The position numbers and the translations under genes are program-made. Shown in pieces: positions 5,541-43,299 of a stretch of 64,000 bases of DNA. Position 1 is the first letter of the stretch, and every line of letters starts with the position of its first letter. This DNA comes from an uncultured Candidatus Saccharibacteria bacterium. GTDB lineage: Bacteria > Patescibacteriota > Minisyncoccia > Phycocordibacterales > JACOZG01. The stretch is from positions 5,574 through 69,573 of the forward strand of contig CAYHYA010000001.1 of assembly GCA_964360815.1 (NCBI GenBank). Reading direction: 5' to 3'. The notes beneath the pieces are model-generated. The model had not been told where the DNA came from and did not search any database. It saw only the letters and a program-made list of their open reading frames with translations.

Positions 5541-6197
5541 CTAGACTTTACTATAGCGGCTCCAGCGCCGTTCGCCGGTTTTCTTAACCAAGCCAGCAGT
5601 GGTGAGATCAGTTAGTTCCCGTTGAACGGTTTTACCGCTAAATTCGGGTAAACTTTTAGCCACTTCTTTAATGGAGAGCCAGGCGCCCGGCCGAAGCGAT
5701 TGTAGGATGGCCGCCCGGCGATCGGCTTTGGTTTTCTTGTTTCCAGCCGTCGGTCCTAGCCGACGGGCTTTAGGGCCAGTTTTTAGCCGGCGCGCGGGCA
5801 AAACTTTAGCGGTTGGGGTCGGTAAGGTTGTCGCCGACTCAAATAGAGCCGAAAGATTGTTCGGTTCATGATTAAGCCAGTTTTGAAGCACCAGATATTC
5901 TTGACGCAACAGAGCAAAATTCATGGCTGAGGCCTGACGATCAAAAGTGGTAACATCAATCAAGGACAGCAATTTGGTGATATCGGACAAAGATTGGCCC
6001 GAGTTAGTGGCGAGCAATGCGAGCAAAACATCTAACGCCTTTTCTCTTAACCGCCACTTGATCTGGTCGTTGTCTGATAGGAAATTGGTGACTAAATATA
6101 AAGCCGAGGCGAGTTTTTCGGCTTTAAGGACAATTGGAGTTTTGTCTTTTATGTCCTTTTCTGGCATCTTGTCCTTTATTGAGCGTTCACCGGTCAT
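5541..6197 (-). CDS. Hypothetical protein with C-terminal winged-helix DNA-binding domain
   Basis: C-terminus WLSIKEVAKSLPEFSGKTVQRELTDLTTAGLVKKTGERRWSRY resembles an ArsR/DeoR-type wHTH. No family was recognised for the N-terminus. Confidence 0.35.
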   Translation of the reverse strand: MTGERSIKDKMPEKDIKDKTPIVLKAEKLASALYLVTNFLSDNDQIKWRLREKALDVLLALLATNSGQSLSDITKLLSLIDVTTFDRQASAMNFALLRQEYLVLQNWLNHEPNNLSALFESATTLPTPTAKVLPARRLKTGPKARRLGPTAGNKKTKADRRAAILQSLRPGAWLSIKEVAKSLPEFSGKTVQRELTDLTTAGLVKKTGERRWSRYSKV

Positions 6198-6277
6198 TTG
6201 TCTTTTATTATATCTAGGACAAGAGAAATGTCCATTAAATTAGGGCGGGGTGAGTCGGTTTGCTATAATCGTCAGTA

Positions 6278-8368
6278 ATGAAGCGATCGAAAACCCTGGA
6301 GCAGGTTGGCGAGGGGACGAAACATGGCGTCTTAGCGATTGCCGCTTTCGTCTTGGGGATCTTTTTCGTGTTGGCCAGTTTTGACCGCGCCGGCCGGGCC
6401 GGCGCTGGTTTACACCAATTTTTACGTCTGGTTTTTGGTTGGGGGTTTTTCCTATTTCCGGCCGTGCTGTTTTTCATCGGTTTGGCTTTACTGAAAGCCC
6501 TGCGTCCGCAAACTTTGAAACTGAAGCTTTGGGGTGGCGCGGTGTTTTTTATCGGCGGTCTCGGCCTGCTCGACCTCCTCTTTAACGCCGGTGGTTTGGT
6601 TGGTCAACTTCTGGCTAAACCGCTAATCGCTCTCTTTGATCGTTCGATCAGTGTGGTCTTTTTCGGTGCTTTAATTGTGACGGCGGTGTTAATTATTTTC
6701 GACACCCAGTTAACGCTCGAACGTTCGCTTTTTGGTTGGCGCCGCCGACCGAAAGTCGTTGCCGGTGAAGACGAAATGACCGTCAACGATCAGTTTGTCG
6801 GCGACAATAAATCGTTGCCGATCAAAGACTCCGGTTCAAGCGTCAGCAAGAGTCCAAACATCAAAGAAAACATCGAGTCGGAAACCGCCCCGCTCACGGC
6901 GGCGATTAAAAACAGCGGTCAAGGGAATCCATCGGAGTTTCGACCCCTGCCGCTTTCATTACTCGAGCGCGACGTGGGCAAACCGGTCTCGGGCGACATT
7001 AAAGCCAACGCCAACATTATTAAACGGACGCTGGCCAATTTCGGCATCATGGTGGAAATGGACGAAGTTTCGATCGGCCCCTCGATCACCCGCTACGCGC
7101 TCAAGCCGGCCGAGGGCGTGAAGCTCTCGCGAATCATTGCGCTCCAAAATGATTTGGCCTTGGCCCTCGCCGCGCACCCGATCCGCATCGAAGCGCCGAT
7201 CCCCGGCCTGTCGCTCGTTGGCATCGAGATCCCAAACCGCACCAAAGCGACGGTTGGTTTGGCCCCACTGCTCGGTTCCGCCGCCTTCTTGAATTCGCCA
7301 CTGTCGCTCTTGGTCTCGCTTGGCCGCGATATCTCCGGCGCGCCGCACTTCGCCAACCTTGCGCGCGCGCCACACATTTTAATTGCCGGTTCAACCGGCT
7401 CCGGCAAATCGGTGGTCATCCACACTTTCATCACTTCCCTGCTTTATCGCAATTCGCCGCAAGCATTGCGCCTGATTATGATTGATCCGAAACGCGTCGA
7501 GCTCACGCTGTACAACAAAATTCCTCATCTCTTAACGCCGGTGGTCACTGACGCGAAGAAGGCCATCGCCACGCTCAAGTGGGCCACGCAGGAAATGGAA
7601 CGGCGTTACGGCGTGCTCGAACAAGAAGCGGTGCGCGACATTCAGTCTTATCACAAAACCAAACCGGAAAACGTTTCTGAAATGCCTTACATCGTGATCA
7701 TTATTGACGAATTAGCCGACATTATGACCCGTTACCCACGCGAGCTCGAGGCGGTGATCGTCCGCTTGGCCCAAATGTCGCGCGCGGTCGGTATCCATCT
7801 CGTACTCTCGACGCAACGGCCATCGGTGGAAGTGATCACCGGTTTGATTAAAGCCAACATCTCCTCGCGCGTGGCTTTGCAAGTGGCCTCGCAGATTGAT
7901 TCGCGAACCATCTTGGACATGGCCGGCGCCGAAAAATTGCTCGGTTCGGGCGACATGCTTTATCTCTCCGGCGAACGCTCGAAGCCGTTGCGTTTGCAAT
8001 CGGCGTTTGTATCGGAGCCGGAGGTGAAGAAGGTGGTTGACTGGCTGGCGAGGAATTATAGCGACCGCCTGCCGGACGAATTACCGATCACCGAGCTTAA
8101 TCAAAAAAACGATTTAGGGTCGGGGTTGGATGAAGCGTTTGGCGACAATGGCGATGATGACGAACTTTATGAGGAAGCGCGCGAGATCGTCATCAGCGCC
8201 GGCAAGGCCTCGGCTTCTTATCTCCAGCGCCGCTTAAAAATTGGCTACGCCCGCGCGGCGCGACTACTCGATCTGCTCGAAGAGCATGGCGTGGTCGGTC
8301 CGGGCGAGGGCGCTAAACCACGGCAAGTTTTTGAAAGTTCGACCACGAACTCGGCCGAGACGGTGTGA
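6278..8368 (+). CDS. ftsK: DNA translocase FtsK/SpoIIIE
   Basis: N-terminal TM segments, a linker, then the motor domain with Walker A IAGSTGSGKSV and IMIDPKRVEL, and a C-terminal gamma-domain-like wHTH. Confidence 0.85.
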   Translation: MKRSKTLEQVGEGTKHGVLAIAAFVLGIFFVLASFDRAGRAGAGLHQFLRLVFGWGFFLFPAVLFFIGLALLKALRPQTLKLKLWGGAVFFIGGLGLLDLLFNAGGLVGQLLAKPLIALFDRSISVVFFGALIVTAVLIIFDTQLTLERSLFGWRRRPKVVAGEDEMTVNDQFVGDNKSLPIKDSGSSVSKSPNIKENIESETAPLTAAIKNSGQGNPSEFRPLPLSLLERDVGKPVSGDIKANANIIKRTLANFGIMVEMDEVSIGPSITRYALKPAEGVKLSRIIALQNDLALALAAHPIRIEAPIPGLSLVGIEIPNRTKATVGLAPLLGSAAFLNSPLSLLVSLGRDISGAPHFANLARAPHILIAGSTGSGKSVVIHTFITSLLYRNSPQALRLIMIDPKRVELTLYNKIPHLLTPVVTDAKKAIATLKWATQEMERRYGVLEQEAVRDIQSYHKTKPENVSEMPYIVIIIDELADIMTRYPRELEAVIVRLAQMSRAVGIHLVLSTQRPSVEVITGLIKANISSRVALQVASQIDSRTILDMAGAEKLLGSGDMLYLSGERSKPLRLQSAFVSEPEVKKVVDWLARNYSDRLPDELPITELNQKNDLGSGLDEAFGDNGDDDELYEEAREIVISAGKASASYLQRRLKIGYARAARLLDLLEEHGVVGPGEGAKPRQVFESSTTNSAETV

Positions 8369-14210: not shown

Positions 14211-15671
14211 TTATTTCCGTGGAAATAGCGGTGGGGTCGGTGGCTGATTGATCTTAATACCGTCAATGATTTTTTCAGCGGTTGCCGGCATAAAAGGTTT
14301 GAGCGCGACAGCCAGATCGGCCAAACCTTGAACCAGTTTGGCGATGTCGGCGCGGGCGGTGGTCGGATCAGTTTTGATTAAATTAAACGGTTGAGTTTTC
14401 TGGATGTAGGCATCGTGGAGACCAATCTGCCGCCAGATTTCGTCCATTGCCTGACTAAACTGATAACCGGCGAGCGGCGTGGTTAAATGACTAAAAGCCG
14501 AGATTGATCGGCGTTCGTAGACGAACGGTTGGGATAAATGCGCGCTCGCAAGCGTCATCACCCGACTAACTAAATTACCCAAACCGTTCGCCAGATTGGC
14601 GTTGTAACACTCTTTAAATTTTTCCAACGTGACATCAGTATCTTCGAACGGTTGGACGTGACGGAGGAGAAAATAGCGCACCGCGTCAGTGCCGTATTCT
14701 TCGACTAGCTTGAACGGGTCAATCACGTTGCCGAGCGATTTCGACATTTTCTGACCGCCGCTCGTGATAAATCCATGAATCACAATTTGCCGCGACGGTG
14801 GCAAACCAACCGACAAAAGCATCGCTGGCCACATTGCCGCCTGCTGACGAAGATTATCTTTGCCGGCAAACTGGGTGACTGGCCACCACTTGTTGAAGCG
14901 GTTTTCGTCAGCGGGCCAACCGATCGCGGAAATATAGTTGACGAGGGCATCAAACCAAACGTACATCGTGTGCGCCGGATCGTCCGGTACTGGCACGCCC
15001 CACGGTTGCTTGGCCACCGAACGCGAAATGGAAAAATCTTCCAGTCCCCGACCAACAAACTCCCGAACCTCGTTTAGCCGAGAATTCGGCACGACGAAAT
15101 CTGGCCGTGTTTCGTAAAGTTCAAGCAGTGGTTTTTGAAATCGCGAAAAACGAAAAAAGTAATTTTCTTCGGCAATTAGTTCGAGTGGTTGGTTGGGATG
15201 AAGGGGGCAGAGATTGTTCGTGAGTTCGGATTCCGTTTTTTCCAGCTCGCAACCAACGCAGTATTTAAGCTGGTAATCTTTTTTGTAAATATCACCGGCG
15301 GCGGCCGCCCGCCGCCAAAATTCTTGGGCCGCGGCGACATGGGCAGGGTCAGTGGTTCGAACAAAGTTGGCGTCCGGCAAAATGCCAAGCATCGGCAATA
15401 ATTGCTTGAAGCGACCGGCCGTCCGAGTGACGTAGGTCGCCGGATCAAGTCCGGCTTGACTAGCCGCTCGAAAAATTTTTAAACCATGCTCGTCGGTGCC
15501 AGTGTTAAAAAAAACTTCCCGGCCAATCAAACATTCGTAACGAACCATCGTGTCAACGAAGACCAACTCCAAAGCGAAGCCGATATGAGGATCAGCGTTA
15601 ACGTAGGGTAGGGTGGTGGTAAAATAACGCGGCTCAAGCATTCTCGGCAGCGATCCGCTTTCTCTGTTCAA
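14211..15671 (-). CDS. metG: Methionyl-tRNA synthetase (short form, no C-terminal tRNA-binding domain)
   Basis: PYVNADPHIGF (HIGH-like) and KMSKSLGNVIDP (KMSKS). Class I catalytic core with a MetRS-type connective peptide. Confidence 0.85.
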   Translation of the reverse strand: MNRESGSLPRMLEPRYFTTTLPYVNADPHIGFALELVFVDTMVRYECLIGREVFFNTGTDEHGLKIFRAASQAGLDPATYVTRTAGRFKQLLPMLGILPDANFVRTTDPAHVAAAQEFWRRAAAAGDIYKKDYQLKYCVGCELEKTESELTNNLCPLHPNQPLELIAEENYFFRFSRFQKPLLELYETRPDFVVPNSRLNEVREFVGRGLEDFSISRSVAKQPWGVPVPDDPAHTMYVWFDALVNYISAIGWPADENRFNKWWPVTQFAGKDNLRQQAAMWPAMLLSVGLPPSRQIVIHGFITSGGQKMSKSLGNVIDPFKLVEEYGTDAVRYFLLRHVQPFEDTDVTLEKFKECYNANLANGLGNLVSRVMTLASAHLSQPFVYERRSISAFSHLTTPLAGYQFSQAMDEIWRQIGLHDAYIQKTQPFNLIKTDPTTARADIAKLVQGLADLAVALKPFMPATAEKIIDGIKINQPPTPPLFPRK

Positions 15672-18499: not shown

Positions 18500-18762
18500 T
18501 GAACTACTATTACGCGCCGTCATTCTTAAGGCAACTTAAAAAACTTGATCCAGCCATTCAAGCTGAAGCCATCGAAAAAATAAGTTTATTTAAAACCGGG
18601 GACTATGGTCGGCAACTAAAAGTTCACAAGTTAAGTGGTTGGCTAAATGATCGCTATAGTTTTTCTGTTGATTATCGCGTTCGAATCGTTTTCACCTACG
18701 TACACAAAAGAAAAGGTATCCTTTTTGTCGCAATCGGTGACCACGACGTGTACAAAAACTAG
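18499..18762 (+). CDS. parE: RelE/ParE-family toxin
   Basis: 87 aa. YRVRIVFTYVHKRKGILFVAIGDHDVYKN matches the C-terminal RelE/ParE signature. Confidence 0.65.
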   Translation: MNYYYAPSFLRQLKKLDPAIQAEAIEKISLFKTGDYGRQLKVHKLSGWLNDRYSFSVDYRVRIVFTYVHKRKGILFVAIGDHDVYKN

Positions 18763-20063
18763 CTTAAGCGTTTGGCCAGTTCATTAATTGGCACTCGTTC
18801 TTGTTTTCCGGTGTCGCGATCGCGCAGGGTCACCGTGTCGTCATCGAGGGTTTGAAAATCAATGGTGAGACAGGCCGGAGTACCAATCTCGTCCTGACGG
18901 CGATAGCGCTTGCCGATGTTGCCATGGTCGTCCCAAGCAAGCGCCGGTTGTTCTCTTTTAAGGGCGGTGTAAACGGTTCGGGCTTTGGCCACCAACTCCG
19001 GCTTATTTTTCAAAAGCGGAAAGACGGCCGCTCGAACCGGCGCGAGGCGCGCCGGCAAACGGAGAAACGTTCGCGGTTCGCCCCCCAACTCATCTTCGGT
19101 ATAGGCGCTGACGAGCACGGCTAAAATGGCGCGGCCGACCCCAAGCGAGGGTTCGATCACGTGCGGCACAATCTTTTCGTTGGTTTCTTGATTTAAAAAA
19201 GAGAGGTCAACACCACTCGAAGTCATGTGGCTTTTCAAGTCGTGATCAGTGCGATAGGCCAAGCCAAATAATTCTTTCTGGCCAAATGGAAACTCAAACT
19301 CGAAATCAACCGTTCGCTTGGAGTAATGGGCGCGATCGCCGTCGGTAATTTCTAGCTCGTGGATTTTTTTTGGATCAATTCCCACCGCCTCAATAAAACG
19401 CCAGATCTCCTTTTGCCACATCTCGAACGCGCCGCGCCAATCTTCCGGTTTAACGAAATATTCCACCTCCATTTGTTCCAGCTCGCGAACTCGAAACAGG
19501 AAATCGCGAGGCGCGATTTCATTTCTAAAGGCCTTGCCGATCTGGGCGATACCGAAAGGTAATTCCGGATGAAACGAGTCGACGATATTTTTAAAATTAG
19601 TAAAAATCCCCTGCGCCGTTTCCGGACGAAGATAGGCCAAAGAAGATTCGTCTCGGGTGGCACCGAGATTCGTTTCCAACATCAAATAGAACTGTCTCGC
19701 TTCACCCAACTTCCCACCACAGTCCGGACATTTTTCCGAGTCGGTTAAATGGTCGGTGCGAAAACGTCGTTGGCACTTTTCGCATTCAGAAAGCCGGTCG
19801 GCAAAACCGCGAGCGTGGCCACTGGCTTGGAGAACCTCCTGCTTAGTGACGATCGCCGAATCAAGACCATACATTTCCTCTCGGTCGGTGACAAACTGCT
19901 TCCACCACAATTGGGTTAGGTTGTTTTTGAGCGAAAGTCCATATGGTCCGTAGTCAAAAAAACCGGCCAGCCCACCGTAGATATCCGCGCTCGGATAGAT
20001 AAACCCGCGCCGTTTACACAGCGAGACTATTTTTTCCAATAATGACTGGTCAGAAGTAATCAT
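18759..20063 (-). CDS. glyQS: Glycyl-tRNA synthetase (alpha2 type)
   Basis: Class II motifs, a zinc-knuckle insertion (CEKCQRRF...CPDCG) and a C-terminal anticodon-binding domain. The length fits dimeric GlyRS. Confidence 0.85.
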   Translation of the reverse strand: MITSDQSLLEKIVSLCKRRGFIYPSADIYGGLAGFFDYGPYGLSLKNNLTQLWWKQFVTDREEMYGLDSAIVTKQEVLQASGHARGFADRLSECEKCQRRFRTDHLTDSEKCPDCGGKLGEARQFYLMLETNLGATRDESSLAYLRPETAQGIFTNFKNIVDSFHPELPFGIAQIGKAFRNEIAPRDFLFRVRELEQMEVEYFVKPEDWRGAFEMWQKEIWRFIEAVGIDPKKIHELEITDGDRAHYSKRTVDFEFEFPFGQKELFGLAYRTDHDLKSHMTSSGVDLSFLNQETNEKIVPHVIEPSLGVGRAILAVLVSAYTEDELGGEPRTFLRLPARLAPVRAAVFPLLKNKPELVAKARTVYTALKREQPALAWDDHGNIGKRYRRQDEIGTPACLTIDFQTLDDDTVTLRDRDTGKQERVPINELAKRLS

Positions 20064-22622: not shown

Positions 22623-25600
22623 TTAGGTCGGCTTGATGATTTCTAAATCGAAAACCGGCGTGGCGGTCGTTTCCGCTGTTTCCTTGTCGGCCCGAACAAT
22701 TTCGATCTTCGAAAGCGTGGCCGTTTGCCAAAGAAATGACTCGGCGGCCTTGATCAGTTTTTCGCCCGAAGTACTCGTCGTCACTCGCAAGCTAGCCAAC
22801 TCGCCAGCCAGTAATCCAGATTTTTTTCGCTGATCCTGAATCTGTCGAACGAGTTCTCGTAAATCGCCCTCGAACTTTAGTTCTGGTGTGAGGGTGGTGT
22901 CTAGCTCAACCGTCGCCGCCAAATCATTTTGCCAAACCACTTCCTTAACATTAACTTCATCTTTGATTAAACTGATTAGCTCGTCGGTCAAATCGGGAGT
23001 GACTCCCCTGACGGCCAATCGAGCCAACGGTTGCCTGATCTTTATTCCGGCTTTAACCCGCGCCTCAAGAGCCAAAGATGCTAACTGACGAACCTGTGCC
23101 ATGTCGTTCAAAAGTTTTTCGTTCGCTGTTTCGCCAACAGTGGTTGTTTTATTTTTTTCGAGATTAGGCCAATCGGTTAGATGGACGCTGGTTGGGTCAG
23201 TGGGGTAACGAAGTTTCTGGTAAATTTGTTCGGCGAGAAACGGCGTCAAGGGAGCGAGTAAACGAGACAGTCGTTTAAGAATCTGCCCGAGCGCGAGCGA
23301 AGCGTGTTGGCGCTCGGCCGGTGAGCCAACGCGGAAACGATCTCGTGACCGCCGCAAATACCACTGCGACAGATCAGCCACAAACTCACGCAAGGCGCGA
23401 GCGGCGGCGGTGATCTCGTAACGTTCGAGTCCCCGCGTGACTTCAACCGTTAAACGATCCAGCAACAAATTAATCCACCGATCGAGCACCGGGGTTGCCG
23501 CCCGATCGGGCGGCTTGACGGTTTCAAGTTCAAGGTCAACTGGATAAAGTTCGTAGAAAGATAAGACGTTGGTGATTGGGTTTATAAATTTCTTAACCAC
23601 CTCAAAAACGGTTTGCTCGTCGAAGTTCTTCGACTCGCCGGGTTGATTGATGCTATACATCCAAAAACGCAAAGCGTCGACACCGTATTTGTCTATCATT
23701 AATTGCGGATCGACCACGTTGCCGACCGACTTAGACATTTTCTTACCGGCCGCGTCCAAAATGTGCCCCAGGCAAACGACGTTTTTGTATGGCGTTCCGC
23801 GGTCAAGAATCACGCCAATCGCGAGCAGGGTGTAAAACCAGCCACGAGTTTGATCAATGGCTTCGGCAATGTAATCGGCCGGATAAAGAATTTTGTCGGG
23901 GGTAGAAATTTGGGAAGCGAGCGGCATGGCGCCGGAATCAAACCAAACGTCCAGCACCTCGGGCACTCGTTTAAGCACTTGGCCACTTTCACTAACCAGT
24001 TCGAGCTCGTCAATAAACGGCCGGTGCAGATCAAGTTCATAGTCGGCGTTGTGCGGGAGTGGGACAAAGGGAATTTCTTTCACCTCGGCATTATTCAACC
24101 ATAAATCTCTCGAGATCTGCCCACTTCTCTCGTCATCGGCTCCTTCTGTCACCATCATGAGGGACTCGTAGGTGATCGCATGACCAACAATCAGGATTAC
24201 TTCGTTGGCGTGTTTTTTCTCTAAATCATAAATAAAACTACCGAAACGCCGCTTGGCCTCTTTTAAACTTTCTCCGTCGGAAGGAATAGCGGTGAAATAA
24301 TCGGGTACACCAACTGACCAATTATTAAATTCCGAGCTTGGTTTATCGCTATAAATTCCGAAATCATATTCCCGCAAACGGTTATCAAAAATAATTTCGG
24401 TCGGATTAAATTTAAGCTCTCTTACTACCAAATCAGCCGTTTCGCGACAGCGCACCAGCGGCGAAGAAAAAATTTTCGTGACACCGAGTTTACGTAATTG
24501 ATCAACACTTGCTACGACCTGCTTTTTCCCTGTCTCGGTTAGGTGGTAAAGAACGTGCTCGTTGTTTGTGAATAAGTCTTTTACCTGATGCTCACCTTCC
24601 CCATGACGCATGACCAAATACCGATTGCCCGAACGTTTCGTGTGGGCTTTAAGTTCGGCGAGTGATCCAATCACCACCCTTTCTTGACCATCAGTCGATT
24701 GCCAAACCGGTAAAGGCGTCCCCCAATAGCGTTCGCGTGAAATCGCCCAATCTTTAACCTCCGTTAACCACTCGCCAAAGCGGCCATTTTTTATATGTTC
24801 CGGCACCCAATTAATTTTTTGATTTTCGGACAACAATTTTTCTTTGAGGGCCGACATCTTGAGGTACCAGGAATCGCGAGCGTAGTAGATCAGCGGGGTT
24901 TTACAACGCCAACAAAAAGGATAGGTGTGGACGATGGACTCGGCTTGGAAAAGTTTCTGCTGGTGCTTTAGTTCGGTGACGATAAGTGGGCTAGCATCAT
25001 TAACCAATTGGCCAGCCCACAATTTGACCTCCGGCTTAAAACGTCCGTCTTCGGCCACCAGATGATATTTCGGCAAACCAACCGCCGTGCCGAGCGCGAA
25101 ATCATCCACACCATACATCACCGCCGTATGGACAATCCCGGTCCCCTCCTCGGCCGACACGAAGTCGGCCGGATAAATTTGGAAGGCGTTGGGCAATTTA
25201 TTTTTTTCGGCGGGCGGCAAATTATCGGCCAGAGACGAGAAAAGAGGGTGGTATTTCTGGCCAACCAATTCTCGACCAGGAACCGTCGAAATAACTCTAA
25301 CCGTTTCGGTGGTAAATAATTTAGAAACAAGACTGGCGAGTAAAATATATTTGCTGTTCGCCGCCTGAACCAGCGCGTATTCCAAATTCGGATTAACCGC
25401 CAAAGCGACGTTGCCGGGCAGAGTCCACGGCGTTGTGGTCCAAGCCAAAAAATAAGTCCCCGGGTCGTTGACCAATTCAAACTTAACGTAAACCGCCGTT
25501 GCCGTGACTTCGGTATAACCCTGGGCCAACTCGTGACTCGAAAGCGCCGTCCCGCAACGCGGACACCACGGAACCACTTTGTAATCTTGATAGAGCAGGC

Positions 25601-26123
25601 CGCGGTCGGCCGCGTGTTTAATGATGCTCCAAACCGACTCGATGTATCTCGGTTCATAGGTGACGTAGGGATGATCTTGGTCAATCCAAAAACCGATTCG
25701 TTCGGTAAATTGCCGCCAGTCGGTTAAATATTTCCAAACGCTGTCGCGACAACGCTGGTTGAAGGCGACGAGACCATACTGTTCAATCTCTTTTTTTGAT
25801 TTCAGGCCAAGCTGTTTTTCGACTTCGAGTTCAACCGGCAAACCGTGCGTGTCCCAACCGGCGCGCCGCGCCACCCGATAACCCTGCATCGTGCGAAAGC
25901 GCGGAATAATATCTTTGAACGCCCGGGCTTCGATGTGGTGGATCCCGGGCCGACCATTGGCCGTCGGCGGCCCTTCATAGAAAACGAAGTCACCCCGCGG
26001 CGCGGATTTTGTCAGTGACTGTTCAAAGATTTTATTCTCCCGCCAAAACTGAAGAATGGCTTCTTCTTTTTTAGCTAAATCTGATGGTTCGTTATTTTTT
26101 GGTTCGATCATTAACGAACGCAT
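22623..26123 (-). CDS. ileS: Isoleucyl-tRNA synthetase carrying an inserted histidine-phosphatase (PGAM-like) domain
   Basis: HIGH region PTANGRPGIHHIEARAFKD and KMSKS. About 200 aa (residues ~497-700, nt ~24026..24635) contain RHGEGEH...LTETG...SSPLVRCRETA...VGHAITY, the histidine-phosphatase signature. Confidence 0.85.
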   Translation of the reverse strand: MRSLMIEPKNNEPSDLAKKEEAILQFWRENKIFEQSLTKSAPRGDFVFYEGPPTANGRPGIHHIEARAFKDIIPRFRTMQGYRVARRAGWDTHGLPVELEVEKQLGLKSKKEIEQYGLVAFNQRCRDSVWKYLTDWRQFTERIGFWIDQDHPYVTYEPRYIESVWSIIKHAADRGLLYQDYKVVPWCPRCGTALSSHELAQGYTEVTATAVYVKFELVNDPGTYFLAWTTTPWTLPGNVALAVNPNLEYALVQAANSKYILLASLVSKLFTTETVRVISTVPGRELVGQKYHPLFSSLADNLPPAEKNKLPNAFQIYPADFVSAEEGTGIVHTAVMYGVDDFALGTAVGLPKYHLVAEDGRFKPEVKLWAGQLVNDASPLIVTELKHQQKLFQAESIVHTYPFCWRCKTPLIYYARDSWYLKMSALKEKLLSENQKINWVPEHIKNGRFGEWLTEVKDWAISRERYWGTPLPVWQSTDGQERVVIGSLAELKAHTKRSGNRYLVMRHGEGEHQVKDLFTNNEHVLYHLTETGKKQVVASVDQLRKLGVTKIFSSPLVRCRETADLVVRELKFNPTEIIFDNRLREYDFGIYSDKPSSEFNNWSVGVPDYFTAIPSDGESLKEAKRRFGSFIYDLEKKHANEVILIVGHAITYESLMMVTEGADDERSGQISRDLWLNNAEVKEIPFVPLPHNADYELDLHRPFIDELELVSESGQVLKRVPEVLDVWFDSGAMPLASQISTPDKILYPADYIAEAIDQTRGWFYTLLAIGVILDRGTPYKNVVCLGHILDAAGKKMSKSVGNVVDPQLMIDKYGVDALRFWMYSINQPGESKNFDEQTVFEVVKKFINPITNVLSFYELYPVDLELETVKPPDRAATPVLDRWINLLLDRLTVEVTRGLERYEITAAARALREFVADLSQWYLRRSRDRFRVGSPAERQHASLALGQILKRLSRLLAPLTPFLAEQIYQKLRYPTDPTSVHLTDWPNLEKNKTTTVGETANEKLLNDMAQVRQLASLALEARVKAGIKIRQPLARLAVRGVTPDLTDELISLIKDEVNVKEVVWQNDLAATVELDTTLTPELKFEGDLRELVRQIQDQRKKSGLLAGELASLRVTTSTSGEKLIKAAESFLWQTATLSKIEIVRADKETAETTATPVFDLEIIKPT

Positions 26124-26782: not shown

Positions 26783-28474
26783 TTACATCTCCTCGGGAAT
26801 TGGGATGGCCAAAAGACCCAAGCCGTTTTCAAGCACTTGGGCCGTGGCCTCGGTTAAGGCCAAACGGTAAGACGCCCCCGAGTCGGAATCAATAATCTGA
26901 TTTGCGGCGTAGAAAGTGTTGAACACCGAAGCCAGTCCCAACAGATAACTAACAATCTGTTGCGGCGCATAAGTGGCGGCCGCGCGCGCGGCCGTTTCGG
27001 GAAAACGACCAAGCCAACGTTCCAAAATAATTACCGCGTCAGTGGAAGCATTAACAAACGTGGCCGTTAGACCACGCGACGCGGCCTTCTTCAGCACGGC
27101 CCGCGCCCGAACCAGAGTGTATTGCAGATAAGGACCCGAGTCCCCGGCGAGCGACAAGGCGTGATCCGGATCAAAAATAATATCCTGTCCGGGAGCTTGT
27201 TTCAAGATCCAATACTTAATCGCCCCGAGCGCCACTCGTTCCACGGTCTCGCTTCGAATCTTCTCCGCCAAGTCACGTCCAACCATCTTCGCCTTCACCA
27301 GTGTCGCGACCTCCTCGATCAAACCCTCGCCAGTGATCACATTACCGGCTCGTGACGACATTTTACCAGTCGCTAGACGCAACAGGCCATGACTCAAGTG
27401 TTTGGTTTTCGCGCCAACCGCCGGCGCAATCAAGTTTAAAACTTTCAACACCACGGCAAAATAGGCGTTCTGTTCGTTAGCCGTAACGATCAGCGACTGA
27501 TCCAATTCCGGTTCGAGAGTAAACTTTTCAGTATTCAAACCCAAATCCTTTGCTTCGTAAGTCGGCAAACCAAGAGCGTTAATGAAAACCCGCGTATGCA
27601 AACCATCCTTCTCACCACGGAAAATTATTGCGCCGTCCGTGCCTATTTCAAAAACACCTTTCTCGCGCCACCTTTCAACCAATTCTTGACCAAGCGGCGC
27701 GACGACACTTTCCAGAAAATAGTAATCGAACGCGGTGCCAAGTCGATGATAAATTTCTTCGAAATGAGCCAGGCTGACCTTCTTCCCTTGATCGTACAGT
27801 GCGTTGATCGCCTCGTCGCGGCGTTCAAAAATAACTTTATTCAGAGTTTCGATCGCGATTCGGGCGGCGGGATCAGTATCGTAAGCTTGACTACCACGCG
27901 CGTAGGCCTCGCCCCAACCGCGAATGTCCTCCGGCGGCTGCGGCAATAATCTCGCCGCCCAGATGGCTTTGGCCACATGCAGACCAACATCACCCTGATA
28001 ACAGGCCCGTTTAACCTTCGCCCCTTGCCACGACAGAAGTCGTGCGATCGCTTCGCCGATCGCGTTCGACATCAGGTGGCCGATGTGAAATTCCTTAAAC
28101 GGATTCGGGTCGGTGTACTCAACCATTATTTTCTGGTTGGCCAAAGTCGTGCCCCGACCGTAATTAGTTTTTTCCTGAATAACTTTTTTAATTTCTCCGC
28201 TAAAAAAATCTTTGGTTAAACGGAAGTTAATAAACCCCGGGCCGGCCGGCTCGACCGTGGCCACCATAGTGGGTAATGATTTTTTTAGTTCGACGACAAT
28301 CGTTTCGGCCAACGCGCGCGGCGCACGCTGGCCGGCTTGGGCCAAAACTAGAGCCACGTTGCTTGAATAATCGCCGTGACTTAAATCGGCGGTCGGCCCA
28401 AGCCAAAAGTCGGCCACCGCGAGACCGAGCGCGGCAAGAGCTTGATTAACTTGTTGGCGCAAAATTTCTGTCAT
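26783..28474 (-). CDS. argS: Arginyl-tRNA synthetase
   Basis: HIGH-type motif (FHIGHLMSNAIGEA), the N-terminal Arg_tRNA_synt_N region and a DALR-type C-terminus. Confidence 0.85.
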   Translation of the reverse strand: MTEILRQQVNQALAALGLAVADFWLGPTADLSHGDYSSNVALVLAQAGQRAPRALAETIVVELKKSLPTMVATVEPAGPGFINFRLTKDFFSGEIKKVIQEKTNYGRGTTLANQKIMVEYTDPNPFKEFHIGHLMSNAIGEAIARLLSWQGAKVKRACYQGDVGLHVAKAIWAARLLPQPPEDIRGWGEAYARGSQAYDTDPAARIAIETLNKVIFERRDEAINALYDQGKKVSLAHFEEIYHRLGTAFDYYFLESVVAPLGQELVERWREKGVFEIGTDGAIIFRGEKDGLHTRVFINALGLPTYEAKDLGLNTEKFTLEPELDQSLIVTANEQNAYFAVVLKVLNLIAPAVGAKTKHLSHGLLRLATGKMSSRAGNVITGEGLIEEVATLVKAKMVGRDLAEKIRSETVERVALGAIKYWILKQAPGQDIIFDPDHALSLAGDSGPYLQYTLVRARAVLKKAASRGLTATFVNASTDAVIILERWLGRFPETAARAAATYAPQQIVSYLLGLASVFNTFYAANQIIDSDSGASYRLALTEATAQVLENGLGLLAIPIPEEM

Positions 28475-31270: not shown

Positions 31271-32569
31271 TTACTTCTTCTCCGCGATCGTCTGGCGGCC
31301 ACGACGGACGTCCCAGTCGTCCGGATCGAGATCGGAATAAAGTTTCAATTTAGGAAAGCGGCGAGCGAGAAAGTGGTGCATTCGGTGAGCCAGACGACGG
31401 AGCGTTGGATGAACCATTTTCCCCGAACGTAGTTCGGTCACATAAACCGCCGCCGGTAAGCCGTAAGTGACCCGGCCGGAGATGTTGAAACCCATCGCCA
31501 AATAATACTGCCGGAGTTCGGGCGGTGCTTTCAGTTTGGCCACGACTGATTTTTGATCACGGATTAGCTTTTCGGCTGTCCGCCGCGCTTCCATCGGCAA
31601 CTGGTCGAGATACCACTGATTGAAACCAAAACGAGGCGTCAAAAGCGGCATCCGGCAAACACCGTGGCGATGGCGTTGGAGATCGCGGAAAGAACCGAAA
31701 TCGAGCAGGAAATCAAACGTGCATTGGCCAAGCTCGCTGAAGAAATGGGGTAGATTGGTTTTACCTGGTCGTCTGGTTAAGAGATCGTGATAACGATCAA
31801 GTTCCGAATTTTTGATGTTGGTTTTAGCGTGCCAATCACCGGTGTAATTTTTCTCCAAATAATAGGTGCGGCGATCGCCAAGATACTGCCAATATTTTTC
31901 CTGTTCCGGATAGAGTTTGTGACCAAAACTGGACTGATACTTTTTCTGCAACTCCCCGTGAATCAGCTTCGCCACCGCCTGTACCTCGGGCAAGGGCCAG
32001 TGACGAAGCAGGGCGAGCTTGTCCCAGGCCTGACGAAGGTTGGTGTGCCAAGACAGTTGAGTAGTAATACCAGCTGGCAAAAAACCGCGTAAGCTGTCGA
32101 AGGTTCGGGCCTTGATCGCCCGTTCGTAAACCGGCTCGTCTTCCGCCGGCTGGCGCGGATATTTCAGCCGGAGATGTTGGGCGACAATCTCTTGGTTCTT
32201 GGTATAAAAATCTCGCCATTTTTCCAAAACTGATTTCGAAACGGTCGTTTCAAGCGGATCAATCATGGCTTGTTTGGATAAATCAATGTAGCGCGAGCTG
32301 GTTTCCTGGCCGGAATAAAGCGGCCAATCTTGAAGTGCCTTGGCCGCCAACATGGAAACGCCTTCGACGAAAAGTGTGGTCGAGCCACAGTCGGCGATGG
32401 AAGCGTGGCCGTAACCAACATAATATTTTTCCATGAACTTACCCGAACCGCTCTGGCGCACCTTCGCGACGTGCTGAACCACCGACTCGGCCGAGCGCGA
32501 ATAGAGCGCCTGCATCATCGCCGTGTCCTCCGGATTAAACTCGTCGTAGATGAAAATTTTCATGCTCAT
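31271..32569 (-). CDS. thyX: ThyX-like flavin-dependent thymidylate synthase, apparently a fused tandem duplication with complementary motif retention
   Basis: The N-half aligns to ThyX (MKIFIYDEF..., YSGQETSSRYIDLS corresponds to ASYNELSGRYSKLS) but lacks RHR. The C-half has FDFLLDFGSFRDLQRHRHG (ThyX RHR block) but lacks SxRY. Confidence 0.5.
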   Translation of the reverse strand: MSMKIFIYDEFNPEDTAMMQALYSRSAESVVQHVAKVRQSGSGKFMEKYYVGYGHASIADCGSTTLFVEGVSMLAAKALQDWPLYSGQETSSRYIDLSKQAMIDPLETTVSKSVLEKWRDFYTKNQEIVAQHLRLKYPRQPAEDEPVYERAIKARTFDSLRGFLPAGITTQLSWHTNLRQAWDKLALLRHWPLPEVQAVAKLIHGELQKKYQSSFGHKLYPEQEKYWQYLGDRRTYYLEKNYTGDWHAKTNIKNSELDRYHDLLTRRPGKTNLPHFFSELGQCTFDFLLDFGSFRDLQRHRHGVCRMPLLTPRFGFNQWYLDQLPMEARRTAEKLIRDQKSVVAKLKAPPELRQYYLAMGFNISGRVTYGLPAAVYVTELRSGKMVHPTLRRLAHRMHHFLARRFPKLKLYSDLDPDDWDVRRGRQTIAEKK

Positions 32570-32581
32570 CTCTTATTCTAA

Positions 32582-33601
32582 CTAGATCGAGCCAAAAGAC
32601 AAAGAACGCAAAAGATGCTGGCGTATTTTGTGTCCACGACAATGCTTTAGCACACCTAGATACGAAGTAAGATTGGCGGGAGTGATCTCGTCCCGATCCA
32701 ACCGCCGTAAAATGCGCCTTTTGGTCCGCGTTCGCAAAACTCGATAATGCGGCCGGGCGACGTACCCCAGATAATCAATTCCTTGGTGCAACTTACGAAT
32801 GATAATTTTGTCGGGATGCAAAGAAAGATTTAATTTGTTTTTCAAAAAATCAGAAATTGGCCAAATCAGGTTTTCTAAATAATCACGGCTTTGATGGACG
32901 ATGACAAAATCATCACAGTAACGCAGGTAATATCTGGCCTTAATTTCGTGTTTAATAAATTGATCAAGTTCGTTGAGATAAATGTTGGCAAAAAGCTGAC
33001 TGGTTACATTGCCCAGCGGTAAGCCACAACCAGGGATGATAGCGAAGCTCTCAACGACCGATCGAATTAGAGTGATAACACGGCTATCACCGATTACCTT
33101 TTCAATCAATGACAACAAGATAGCATGATCAATATTATCAAAAAACTTTTGAACATCACATTTTAAGGCGTAGCTTTGTGAATGATAATTACCACTGATC
33201 TTGCGAACAAAGGATTCTAGACGACTTACTCCACGATGCACTCCTTTGTTGAAGCGACAAGAATACGAGTCGTAAATAAAATGCCGATCAAAAAAATGGT
33301 ACAGTCCACGGAAAAGTGCTTGGTGTAGAACTCGGTCGAGCACCGGGGCCTTGTGGATATGACGTATCTTTGGGTCCCGAACGTAAAAAGATTGGTAGGA
33401 GGAGGGATGGTAAGCGTCGGAGACCAGATCAGCATGAAGTTTAAACAAATTATTTTCTAAATCGAACCCGAACTCCAAAACTTTGATTTTTTTGATTTTG
33501 CCGCGCTTGAATTCTCGCCAGGCATTGAGTAAATTAGACAGCGACACAACATGCTCCCACAACGACCAAGTAGACCCCCCCCCAACAGATTTCCTTGCCA
33601 A
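32582..33601 (-). CDS. Diversity-generating retroelement (DGR) reverse transcriptase
   Basis: RT motifs 1-7 with YCDD. Motif 4 reads LGNVTSQ, the DGR-specific [ILV]GxxxSQ that replaces QGxxxSP. 339 aa. The cognate TR and VR lie directly upstream. Confidence 0.8.
   Translation of the reverse strand: MARKSVGGGSTWSLWEHVVSLSNLLNAWREFKRGKIKKIKVLEFGFDLENNLFKLHADLVSDAYHPSSYQSFYVRDPKIRHIHKAPVLDRVLHQALFRGLYHFFDRHFIYDSYSCRFNKGVHRGVSRLESFVRKISGNYHSQSYALKCDVQKFFDNIDHAILLSLIEKVIGDSRVITLIRSVVESFAIIPGCGLPLGNVTSQLFANIYLNELDQFIKHEIKARYYLRYCDDFVIVHQSRDYLENLIWPISDFLKNKLNLSLHPDKIIIRKLHQGIDYLGYVARPHYRVLRTRTKRRILRRLDRDEITPANLTSYLGVLKHCRGHKIRQHLLRSLSFGSI
33575..33583. repeat. Homopolymeric C9 (G9 on the coding strand) inside codons 7-9 (GGG) of the DGR reverse transcriptase
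   Basis: Read directly: tagacccccccccaacag. The minus strand atggcaaggaaatctgttGGGGGGGGGtct encodes MARKSVGGGS. Confidence 0.8.
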
Positions 33602-41278: not shown

Positions 41279-42364
41279 TTAGTGACCAAAGATGATGTTG
41301 GCCAGGTCGCGACGAACGGCATTGATTGCCCGACTATCGGCCGGCGGATGTGGATAGGTTCGATTGGTCAACATGACGAACGCTCGCCCGCCAACCGGAT
41401 CAACCGCGATCAGGGTACCGGTAAAACCGGACTTGTAGAAAATTCGCCGGTCGTCAGGTAAATCAATCATTTCTGACTGGCCGATGGCCCAACCCAATCC
41501 AGCTGTCCGATTTATTGACCCTTCAAGCTGGTTCGTGGACATCGCCTCGACCAGGTTTGCCGAAAAATATTTCCGGCCACCCTTAATCCCCTTGTTCAAG
41601 AGCATCGCCAAAAATTTAAGTAGGTCCGGCGCGGTCGAAAACAGGCCAGCAATGGCCGTGGGCCTCTTTTTCCCGAGAACGAAGGCGGCTTCATCGTGAA
41701 CCACGCCGCGGACCTCTCTCTTGCGCCAAATATCGTCAATCTCGGTCGGAGCAATGCCCGCGGACAGGTGTGTCTCGGGCGAATAGTTGGTCCGCGCCAT
41801 TCCCAGGGGGTTGAAGAATTTTTCGGCAGCGAGGCGGTCGAGGCGAGATCCGGTAACTTTCTCGACCACCAAACCGATCAGCAGGGCGGTCGGATTGGCA
41901 TAGACATGGTGACTACCGGGCGGGCATTTAAGCGGCGCCTTAAAAACAGTCTCCCAAATTGCCTCGGCCGAATGTCCGGTGCGAGCCAATTCCGAGAGTG
42001 CTGGCAGTTCAAGATCGAGGGTGTAGGTTAACAGGTGCCAAATTGTGACCGCCTGTTTGTTTTCCTCGGTTCCGAACTCCGGTACATAACGAACCAACGG
42101 ATCGTTTAGTTTGACCTGGCCACTGTCGATCAGCTGTAAGAGTAAGGACGTTCCGACAACCGATTTAGTCAGCGAGGCCAGATCATAGACCGTTTCTGTT
42201 TCAACCAACGGCGAGTCGAGGTCGTAAGTCAGTCGGCCGACTGGCACGATTTGCTGTCCACCATTGGAATGAACCAATCCGACCACGCCACCCGGGAAAA
42301 CCCGGTCGGCAATGGCCAGTGCCAATCGCTTGGTAATGAATGATAGAAGTCCGACTTCCATCAA
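41279..42364 (-). CDS. Serine hydrolase of the beta-lactamase/PBP4* family
   Basis: SxxK motif (DLASLTKSVVG) and class-C-like length. Confidence 0.65.
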   Translation of the reverse strand: MMEVGLLSFITKRLALAIADRVFPGGVVGLVHSNGGQQIVPVGRLTYDLDSPLVETETVYDLASLTKSVVGTSLLLQLIDSGQVKLNDPLVRYVPEFGTEENKQAVTIWHLLTYTLDLELPALSELARTGHSAEAIWETVFKAPLKCPPGSHHVYANPTALLIGLVVEKVTGSRLDRLAAEKFFNPLGMARTNYSPETHLSAGIAPTEIDDIWRKREVRGVVHDEAAFVLGKKRPTAIAGLFSTAPDLLKFLAMLLNKGIKGGRKYFSANLVEAMSTNQLEGSINRTAGLGWAIGQSEMIDLPDDRRIFYKSGFTGTLIAVDPVGGRAFVMLTNRTYPHPPADSRAINAVRRDLANIIFGH

Positions 42365-43299
42365 GTTTTTAAAAGCGCCCGCATCATTCGGGTTAAACCA
42401 ATCCCGCCGCCAAAACGAGGAAAAAATTTTAGCGATAAGAAATCTTCCAACTCACGTTCAACTCGCGCCCGGCCGAAGTGCTCGAAAAGTAGTTTGGCAT
42501 AAGCCCCGTCACTGATAGTGTGGAATTGTTTGCGCATTACCTCTGGATCGACGCTCCGTTCAGCCGAACCAATTGTCTCCATACCGGCGATGATCACGTC
42601 AATTTTGTGGGCATGTTTGCCATTCTTCATCATATTCCAAAACGGCGAGGTGTGAAGCGGAAAACGCTCCAGGAAAAAAACTGGCCCAAACTCTTCGGAC
42701 ATTTCGCGCTCGTGCTCGCTGGTTAATTCCGATGCTTCGTAATAATCGGCCATCTCGTCATAAGTGCGATGCGGATAATTCCGCCGGTCGCCGAAACCAA
42801 GATGTTCGCAGAGTTCGGCTTCGAGCTGGCGGAGGTCATCAATCGTACCAGCGGATTCAAATTCAAACATCGGGAAAATGATTTCGTGTCGACCAGGGAT
42901 CGGATTTTTCTCATTGCGATAACTGGTGCTGACACAAAAGACCCCGGGTAGAGACGGGTCGTTCAAAAGTTCGTATTCGAGCCACATTTGTCCGGTTTGC
43001 GGCAAGGGCCAAGTTTCTCCGGCGTAGTCGTAAGTGGCAATCGTTGTCGGATCCTCGCAGGCAGCCAAAATACTTAACCGATCTTGAGTGTGCACTTCGT
43101 GGAAACCTTTACCCAGGAAAAATTGTCGGAGCTTGTTCACTGTTTGGCTATAACCTTTCACGTTTTTTGTCGCTCGATAATTATTGATCATATTTTGGCA
43201 AAAAAATAACCCCGCGGTGGTGGGGGTGACTAACTTTTTAATAACTTGATTAATAAATACTGACCAAAACTTTTTTTCATATTCGCTAGATTGTAGCAA
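42361..43299 (-). CDS. Class-II aaRS-like catalytic-core protein without anticodon-binding domain; best guess is AsnA-type aspartate-ammonia ligase
   Basis: Motif-2-like YRNEKNPIPGRHEIIFPMFEFE and motif-3-like FGGGIGLTRMMRALL (close to E. coli AsnA GGGIGQSRLTMLLL). 312 aa. Confidence 0.4.
   Translation of the reverse strand: MLQSSEYEKKFWSVFINQVIKKLVTPTTAGLFFCQNMINNYRATKNVKGYSQTVNKLRQFFLGKGFHEVHTQDRLSILAACEDPTTIATYDYAGETWPLPQTGQMWLEYELLNDPSLPGVFCVSTSYRNEKNPIPGRHEIIFPMFEFESAGTIDDLRQLEAELCEHLGFGDRRNYPHRTYDEMADYYEASELTSEHEREMSEEFGPVFFLERFPLHTSPFWNMMKNGKHAHKIDVIIAGMETIGSAERSVDPEVMRKQFHTISDGAYAKLLFEHFGRARVERELEDFLSLKFFPRFGGGIGLTRMMRALLKT

Follow-up and report, generated by a model that had tools for sequence, protein, structure and literature searches.

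An isoleucyl-tRNA synthetase of Parcubacteria-type bacteria carries a nested histidine-phosphatase-fold domain

Aminoacyl-tRNA synthetases (aaRSs) are among the best-studied enzymes, and the add-ons known from their bacterial members are editing or tRNA-binding modules. Here we describe an isoleucyl-tRNA synthetase (IleRS) with an unrelated enzyme domain nested inside it. Its gene, ileS, lies in a stretch of 64,000 nucleotides (the window, throughout this text) of contig CAYHYA010000001.1, from a genome labelled uncultured Candidatus Saccharibacteria, and appears in the list of open reading frames (ORFs) as a complete frame of 1166 residues (22623..26123, minus strand, as for all features of this gene below). 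The protein is a type-2 IleRS, and aa 496-690 (24054..24638), about 195 residues, are a branch-1 histidine phosphatase (HP) domain. Sequence and structure model together confirm that the insert is a complete histidine-phosphatase-fold domain with an intact catalytic set, and by the same evidence both the host synthetase and the guest phosphatase appear to be intact. We favor, with a probability of roughly 0.5, a bifunctional polypeptide in which a functional IleRS carries an HP domain that would act autonomously on a soluble phosphorylated metabolite.

An earlier note, made from the letters of the window alone, had proposed that ileS carries an insertion of about 200 residues ahead of the DVWFDSG motif, and that this insertion is an embedded, PGAM-like histidine phosphatase. 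The insertion is real, and all of the motifs listed in the note are present in one uninterrupted ORF: WGTPLPVW (aa 461-474), RHGEGEH (506-512), LTETG (528-532), SSPLVRCRETA (553-563), VGHAITY (646-652) and DVWFDSG (725-731). The Pfam model His_Phos_1 (PF00300) matches aa 503-670 at E=5.1e-26, with 92 bits against a gathering cut-off of 21.7, which chance does not explain. AlphaFold2, run on the insert with a 45-sequence alignment, gives a model with pLDDT 96.0 and pTM 0.92, and Foldseek pairs this model with solved histidine phosphatases at probability 1.00 and TM 0.71-0.78, among them 9mmh (a riboflavin-pathway phosphatase), mycobacterial GpgP, PspA, TIGAR, PhoE and CobC; the short phosphoglycerate mutase (PGM) of S. 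pombe, 1fzt, is also among the top structural matches. The segment might instead have been a connective-peptide (CP) variant of IleRS without a phosphatase fold, an outcome that the note itself had named as damaging to its proposal, and Pfam, AlphaFold2 and Foldseek all show the phosphatase fold.

The residues on which catalysis by this superfamily depends are kept almost without exception in an alignment of 121 HP-bearing IleRS sequences, which bears out the claim that the catalytic set is intact. The RHG motif, R506-H507-G508 (24600..24608), holds the presumed nucleophilic His, with R and H in 121/121 sequences and G508 in 120/121. R558, within SSPLVRCRETA, is the second Arg of the phosphate pocket (24450..24452; 121/121), and H648, within VGHAITY, its second His (24180..24182; 121/121). 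The presumed general acid/base, E585 in the segment LREYDFG (24369..24371), is Glu in 119 sequences and Asp in the other two. These roles, nucleophile for the His, phosphate pocket for Arg and His and acid/base for the Glu, are established knowledge for the superfamily. An Asn follows the RHG motif region in 41 of 45 sampled sequences, where the window protein has Q513. Mean identity to the window protein is 38% across the insert versus 66-71% for the Rossmann-fold parts of the synthetase, and since the catalytic set is kept at about 38% overall identity, selection on catalysis is indicated. The HP inserts are mildly acidic, with a mean net charge of -4.9 and a pI of 5.9.

The borders of the insert follow from the alignment with the IleRS2 chain 8c8w, where query residue 495 pairs with chain residue 478 and query residue 691 with chain residue 480; this is a clean insertion, and it therefore comprises aa 496-690. 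The note had placed it at 24026-24635, which corresponds to aa 497-700. Short kept segments stand at both edges, SGN at 498-500 and F686..P690, and conservation there is high: N500 is invariant among the 121 sequences, G499 is found in 112 and F686 in 117, and for P690, H691 and N692 the share is 90% or more in each case. Within the synthetase this site belongs to CP3, which a study of the C. albicans IleRS defines as the segment from CP2 to the second Rossmann half, with a topology that differs in each of three solved IleRSs and, in the T. thermophilus enzyme, a zinc-binding motif (PMC7191050). Judged by alignment, then, the insert is nested in a peripheral, structurally plastic subdomain. 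It does not replace a short linker, as the note had thought: it sits in the CP3 subdomain, which contains a zinc knuckle in relatives. Many of those relatives retain a Cys4 zinc knuckle (CxxC...CxCGG) around the insert, and the window IleRS lacks it, with QSTD and SESG in place of CxxC and CxCGG and both Cys pairs gone. The remainder of CP3 after the insert, aa 691-724 (HNADYELDLHRPFIDELELVSESGQVLKRVPEVL; 23952..24053), aligns to 8c8w from residue 480 onward. Among the solved IleRS chains matched, none has an equivalent insert at the CP3 site.

Around the insert, the host reads as a synthetase in working order. The IleRS model TIGR00392, which has a cut-off of 621.4 bits, matches with 867.5 bits in two stretches that flank the insert, and Pfam finds tRNA-synt_1, Anticodon_1 (PF08264) and the IleRS2-type C-terminal domain DUF5915 (PF19302). 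Each match to an IleRS family is broken in two, and PF00300 occupies the gap. The N-terminal part, aa 1-495 (24639..26123), matches 8c8w residues 11-478 and comprises the first half of the Rossmann fold, the CP core, the CP1 editing domain, CP2 and the start of CP3 (a strand and the helix SLAELKAHT). The C-terminal part, aa 725-1166 (22623..23951), assigned from Pfam, motifs and the 8c8w alignment, holds the DVWFDSG strand, the second half of the Rossmann fold, the anticodon-binding domain and the IleRS2-type C-terminal domain. KMSKS can be read in the sequence at aa 795-799 (23727-23741). The CP1 editing site also looks preserved across the 121 sequences: the motifs WTTTPWTLP and GTGIVHTA..D vary little or not at all, with W228-T-T-T-P-W-T-L, H332 and D341 invariant, and structures of the editing domain alone, 1wk8 and 1ue0, match the CP1 region as well. 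A full-length AlphaFold2 model has pLDDT 90.2 and pTM 0.84, with pLDDT 91-98 in the insert. When superposed on solved structures, the IleRS body of this model reaches TMt 0.92 with T. thermophilus IleRS (1ile), 0.81-0.88 with yeast IleRS and 0.80-0.81 with P. megaterium IleRS2 (8c8v/8c8w). The best reading of sequence and model is that the window protein is a working type-2 IleRS that would have retained its aminoacylation function.

The class I signature, also read in the sequence, is the non-canonical GXHH, G60-I-H-H63 (25935..25946). Among the 121 HP-bearing relatives neither His of the pair H62-H63 ever changes, and at least 90% retain G60. This signature is known for part of IleRS2, and the G/AXHH variant raises the mupirocin resistance of IleRS2 by up to 1000-fold (PMC10485003). 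Because of the near-complete conservation of these three residues, mupirocin hyper-resistance can be predicted for the whole clade of HP-bearing IleRSs. The exception models MupA and MupB are missed by the window IleRS (727/1900 and 740/1900 bits). Other aaRS genes lie near ileS on one strand: metS (14211-15671), a class II aaRS of the G/H/P/S/T type (18759-20063) and a 563-residue ORF on the same strand (26783-28474) that reads from the sequence alone as argS. A short class II ORF of the D/K/N type stands at 42361-43299. The argS-ileS arrangement recurs in another locus, L080, with a single open frame spanning the two.

How widespread is the nested domain? A word-indexed search with the insert alone returned two free-standing HPs only, and it was the full-length query together with an exhaustive HMMER search that recovered the family. 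With the full-length IleRS as query, the 120 closest clusters share 50-60% identity with it and are 1101-1211 residues long, and 120/120 combine PF00300 with IleRS domains. An insert of 174-215 residues stands at the identical site in 121/121 aligned sequences. The named sources of these clusters are Patescibacteria, Vogelbacteria, Zambryskibacteria, Pacebacteria/Paceibacterota and Parcubacteria, in agreement with the note's suggestion that the DNA comes from the candidate phyla radiation (CPR). In the exhaustive HMMER search, 5042 cluster representatives match the insert at E<=1e-3, of which 411 remain at E<=1e-10; at least 106 of the best 150 are IleRSs or IleRS fragments with the insert at the window site. 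We also scanned one genome per GTDB species with a pattern derived from a 12-sequence alignment, which gave at least 600 matches; at least 597 of the matched stretches encode a relative (597/600 among the matches listed), on contigs of up to 688 kb. The record titles name Paceibacteria, Parcubacteria, Nomurabacteria, Kaiserbacteria, Zambryskibacteria and Minisyncoccia, and some read "uncultured Candidatus Saccharibacteria", a label that is unconfirmed. Most of 80 loci show a single unbroken frame of about 1100-1250 residues spanning the insert. Among the matches listed, no species representative shares more than 48% identity with the window insert, so that none of them is a near relative of the window organism, and a fragment of the window protein occurs at 100% identity in an independent collection (P0123). 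These distributions are those of an arrangement that is old and vertically inherited in CPR bacteria of the Parcubacteria/Paceibacteria type. The insert is AT-richer than its surroundings, with a GC content of 0.40-0.45 versus about 0.50 for the rest of ileS; because the insertion is old, this is more likely to reflect weaker constraint than recent transfer.

Within its superfamily, the guest resembles phosphatases rather than mutases. Over its whole length the family profile aligns with PspA (4ij5; E=2.8e-24, profile positions 9-178), PhoE (1ebb/1h2e; E=2.7e-23), 9mmh (E=7.4e-20) and CobC (about 1e-19), whereas the dPGM and BPGM chains cover only profile positions of about 5-114, the N-terminal half, at E~1e-12 or weaker. 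The best NCBIfam match of the insert is a short archaeal dPGM model, NF038349, at E=8.5e-20 and with 71.5 bits vs a cut-off of 225; the cut-offs of the other dPGM models are missed as well (PRK01295 42/316, PRK01112 29.4/320, GpmB 45.9/261). The profile comparison thus supports an HP domain that is phosphatase-like, of the PspA/PhoE/CobC kind, and not mutase-like. The term PGAM-like, used in the note, is apt for the superfamily; as a statement of mutase likeness it does not survive the phosphatase-type profile match.

Seen against known systems, the window protein combines familiar parts in an arrangement of its own. It shares with the IleRS2 enzymes of T. thermophilus (1ILE) and P. megaterium (8C8V/8C8W) the fold, CP1 editing, KMSKS, the C-terminal domain and GXHH, and differs from them in having an enzyme domain of about 195 residues in CP3 and no zinc-knuckle cysteines. 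The guest has the fold, the catalytic set and the size (about 190-210 residues) of PspA/iPSP1 (4IJ5), PhoE (1H2E/1EBB), CobC (6NRU/6E4B), GpgP Rv2419c (4PZ9) and 9MMH, with TM 0.72-0.78 and profile E-values from 1e-19 to 3e-24; identity to these proteins is only 20-23%, and they are free-standing whereas the window domain is nested in an aaRS. With the dPGMs (GpmA, BPGM, 1FZT) it has in common the superfamily and the RHG/Arg/Glu/His catalytic residues, but the profile likeness to them is confined to the N-terminal half and every dPGM cut-off is missed. There is a curated precedent, in kind only: NCBIfam recognizes an IleRS with a GNAT domain (NF040702, ileS_w_GNAT), likewise an unrelated catalytic domain inside a bacterial IleRS. 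The window IleRS has no GNAT domain, carries a guest from a different enzyme class and reaches 364 bits vs the 1999 of that model. A branch-1 HP joined to a nucleic-acid enzyme is also found in the RNase H/acid phosphatase of the Rv2228c type (NF005567), whose phosphatase half matches at E=1.2e-18, but that protein is an end-to-end fusion, while the HP described here is nested and has another partner; its score is 67.6 against a cut-off of 326.

The HP domain is not confined to the CP3 site of IleRS. Its hosts are IleRS (three sites), ValRS (two sites) and, once, TsaC, and no other fusion host of HP was found among the best 150 cluster representatives. Other IleRS lineages have HP after DxWFESGSMPYA, at the start of the anticodon-binding domain or inside an intact zinc knuckle. 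One IleRS (P0217) has two HP domains, and another (P0239) has at least two and the start of a third where the sequence ends; the copies read in these two proteins all retain RH(G/A). A ValRS (P0156) carries four copies, and of the 120 ValRS clusters nearest to it (P0156, P0273-P0390), 71 have one to four HP domains; the named sources of these nearest clusters are Gracilibacteria and Peregrinibacteria, and a Nomurabacteria ValRS among them is without HP. Seventy-one of the ValRS copies occupy the loop between WWGHRIP and DTWFSS, which is the homologue of the CP3 site of IleRS; nine others stand between QWF and WGH. The residues R, H and R are present in essentially all HP copies, and the multi-copy variants hold the catalytic set in nearly every copy. 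Mean identities, which are pairwise only, are 33% among ValRS copies, 25% between ValRS and IleRS copies and 32% between IleRS and free-standing HPs. From these values the ValRS and IleRS domains are more likely to have been acquired separately. A single shared origin of the two sets of inserts is not favored, with pairwise identities of 25% between groups against 33-38% within them.

The third host, the threonylcarbamoyl-AMP synthase TsaC (P0226; locus L081, 977-2140), scores above the cut-off of TIGR00057 and has a C-terminal HP of the same clade; this fusion is seen on a single 3.7-kb contig. Some HP-bearing IleRSs, Nomurabacteria and Paceibacteria records included, end in an HD phosphohydrolase of about 190 residues with an H...HD motif (loci L013, L022 at about 5850-6475, L048, and L053 at about 5960-6568), and such synthetases therefore have two unrelated phosphohydrolase modules. 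In one further case (P0196; locus L083, 4001-7201) the N-terminal half of an IleRS is host to three domains, all in frame: CP1 contains an IS200-like Y1 transposase domain, CP3 contains HP, and GNAT follows DxWFESG. The gene ends right after the GNAT domain. From its sequence this may be a split or decaying ileS, and because the neighbors include an SLH-domain protein its host may not be a CPR bacterium. Other guests of ValRS are PF04480 (DUF559, endonuclease-like) and PF00216 (HU DNA-binding), found in P0296, P0331 and P0305. Taken at face value, these architectures make the class Ia synthetases of CPR bacteria seem unusually prone to the uptake of foreign domains.

What might the HP domain do? 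If it works as the rest of its superfamily does, H507 would attack a phosphomonoester to give a phospho-histidine intermediate, R506, R558 and H648 would hold the phosphate, and E585 would donate a proton to the leaving group. The substrate would be a small soluble metabolite, as for PspA, PhoE, CobC and GpgP, and IleRS would be a permissive, constitutively expressed host, with no channelling of substrate between the two. The data show the architecture, the fold, the kept catalytic set, inheritance throughout the lineage and a likeness to phosphatases rather than mutases; from there we infer the catalysis, the substrate class and the independence from aminoacylation. Such an autonomous enzyme is favored because the closest solved relatives are all small-metabolite enzymes, because CP3 is structurally plastic (PMC7191050) and so a plausible permissive site, and because the domain is acidic, unlike an RNA-binding module; for the same reason we do not favor the idea that the insert is itself an RNA-binding module. 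It is favored as well because copy number (one to four) and insertion site vary, which fits a self-contained module, and because aaRSs are among the preferred hosts of domain insertion generally (PMC13114784). Several observations pull the other way. The insert passes no NCBIfam equivalog cut-off for known phosphatases, SixA included (ribazole_cobC 67.2/162.9, PspA 46.8/350, PRK13462 28.7/226), and therefore no orthologue, and so no substrate, can be assigned to it. The strongly kept border residues suggest that HP is held in a fixed orientation on IleRS, and the recurrence of hosts looks non-random, with hints of a link to adenylate-forming, tRNA-directed enzymes that one would not expect of an autonomous phosphatase.

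These last observations lead to the main rival of an autonomous metabolite phosphatase, namely that HP is functionally coupled to aminoacylation or tRNA. HP would then act on something that the aaRS handles and would be a new accessory catalytic domain of class Ia aaRSs, a possibility we take seriously while considering it doubtful. Candidate substrates include a blocked tRNA 3' end (a 3'-phosphate, a 2',3'-cyclic phosphate or a toxin-added pyrophosphate), a nucleotide formed as product or by-product (AMP, pyrophosphate or Ap4A), the phosphorylated enzyme itself or an adenylate-mimicking inhibitor. Coupling would account for the independent recruitment of HP to the homologous loop of ValRS and for its presence at further IleRS sites (following DxWFESG and where the anticodon-binding domain begins), and it fits the C-terminal HP of TsaC, which adds to a recurrent set of adenylate-forming, tRNA-directed hosts, the HD domain on some IleRS-HP proteins and the GNAT domain on one, and the conserved border residues. 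But the HP domain is acidic and not basic, small metabolites are the substrates of all its closest solved relatives, and we know of no member of the histidine phosphatase superfamily that acts on RNA ends. The TsaC fusion, moreover, was seen on just one contig. The recurrence could also reflect permissiveness alone, given the plasticity of CP3 and the general preference for aaRSs as insertion hosts (PMC13114784). A more specific form of coupling, which we hold slightly more tentatively still, is that HP may be an unrecognized accessory activity of CPR class Ia aaRSs, convergent in the CP3 of IleRS and ValRS and acting on the tRNA end, an adenylate-related nucleotide or an aaRS-directed toxin modification.

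Other explanations are further from the evidence. PGM is absent from several shallow Parcubacteria clades (Jaffe et al., PMC7304191), and one might imagine that the insert is the organism's "missing" PGM, or another central-metabolism phosphatase, hidden in ileS. No PGM gene was found within the 64-kb window, the best NCBIfam match is a dPGM model and 1fzt is among the top structural matches, all of which would suit this idea. Nevertheless we judge it improbable, with NF038349 and all other dPGM models far under their cut-offs and the solved dPGMs aligning to the N-terminal half only where phosphatases align in full, and PGM identity is on these grounds not supported. The substrate residues of E. 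coli GpmA (K100, R116/R117 and the Asn of HGN) presumably have no conserved counterpart here either. Might the domain be catalytically dead, a structural replacement for the zinc knuckle or a ligand-sensing allosteric module? The window IleRS does lack both CP3 Cys pairs, and the insert evolves faster than the core. We think this very unlikely, since R-H-R-H is invariant and the Glu nearly so at about 38% identity, many relatives hold zinc knuckle and insert together, and nearly every copy in the multi-copy variants retains the catalytic set. An assembly or binning chimera, in which ileS was merged with an unrelated phosphatase gene, could explain the AT-richness of the insert, and we give it almost no credence: the in-frame architecture recurs at the identical residue position in all of the 120 closest clusters, from independent projects, and again in the at least 597 species-level stretches, on contigs as long as 688 kb, and the identical fragment in another collection points the same way. 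In-frame recurrence in independent assemblies rules a chimera out.

Elsewhere in the window, a reverse transcriptase ORF (RVT_1, 339 residues, 32582-33601, minus strand) adjoins an unusually long ThyX ORF (432 residues, 31271-32569, minus strand). The region 31271-33601 could be part of a diversity-generating retroelement or a group II intron.

Full-text searches of open-access papers and bioRxiv, and look-ups of terms in individual papers, found no description of a phosphatase-bearing IleRS or ValRS; a description elsewhere is possible. By these look-ups, recent papers on IleRS2 evolution and structure mention neither a phosphatase nor CPR, and a 2026 survey of domain insertions describes no phosphatase-bearing IleRS or ValRS. 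The note's belief that the architecture was undescribed is therefore upheld for this literature, and the architecture is not unique, as such sequences are abundant in public databases. There they are hard to recognize: the product names of the closest clusters are only "class I tRNA ligase family protein", "isoleucyl-tRNA synthetase" or "hypothetical", and annotation pipelines downgrade HP-bearing genes to the first of these. Metabolic reconstructions of CPR bacteria also overlook the phosphatase, and gaps in them such as the "absent" PGM of some Parcubacteria are still discussed.

The finding matters because an unrelated enzyme, catalytically intact as judged by its residues, sits in the catalytic core of an aaRS and has been kept over a class-level lineage, in hundreds of species. 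One meaning would be a striking case of "hitch-hiking" on an essential gene in ultra-small genomes. Alternatively, HP in IleRS, together with the independent case of ValRS, may point to a hitherto unknown chemical link between tRNA charging and the hydrolysis of phosphate esters. If an accessory activity of this kind proves to be true, HP modules, accompanied on some synthetases by an HD or GNAT module, would be built-in repair, immunity or signaling chemistry coupled to tRNA charging.

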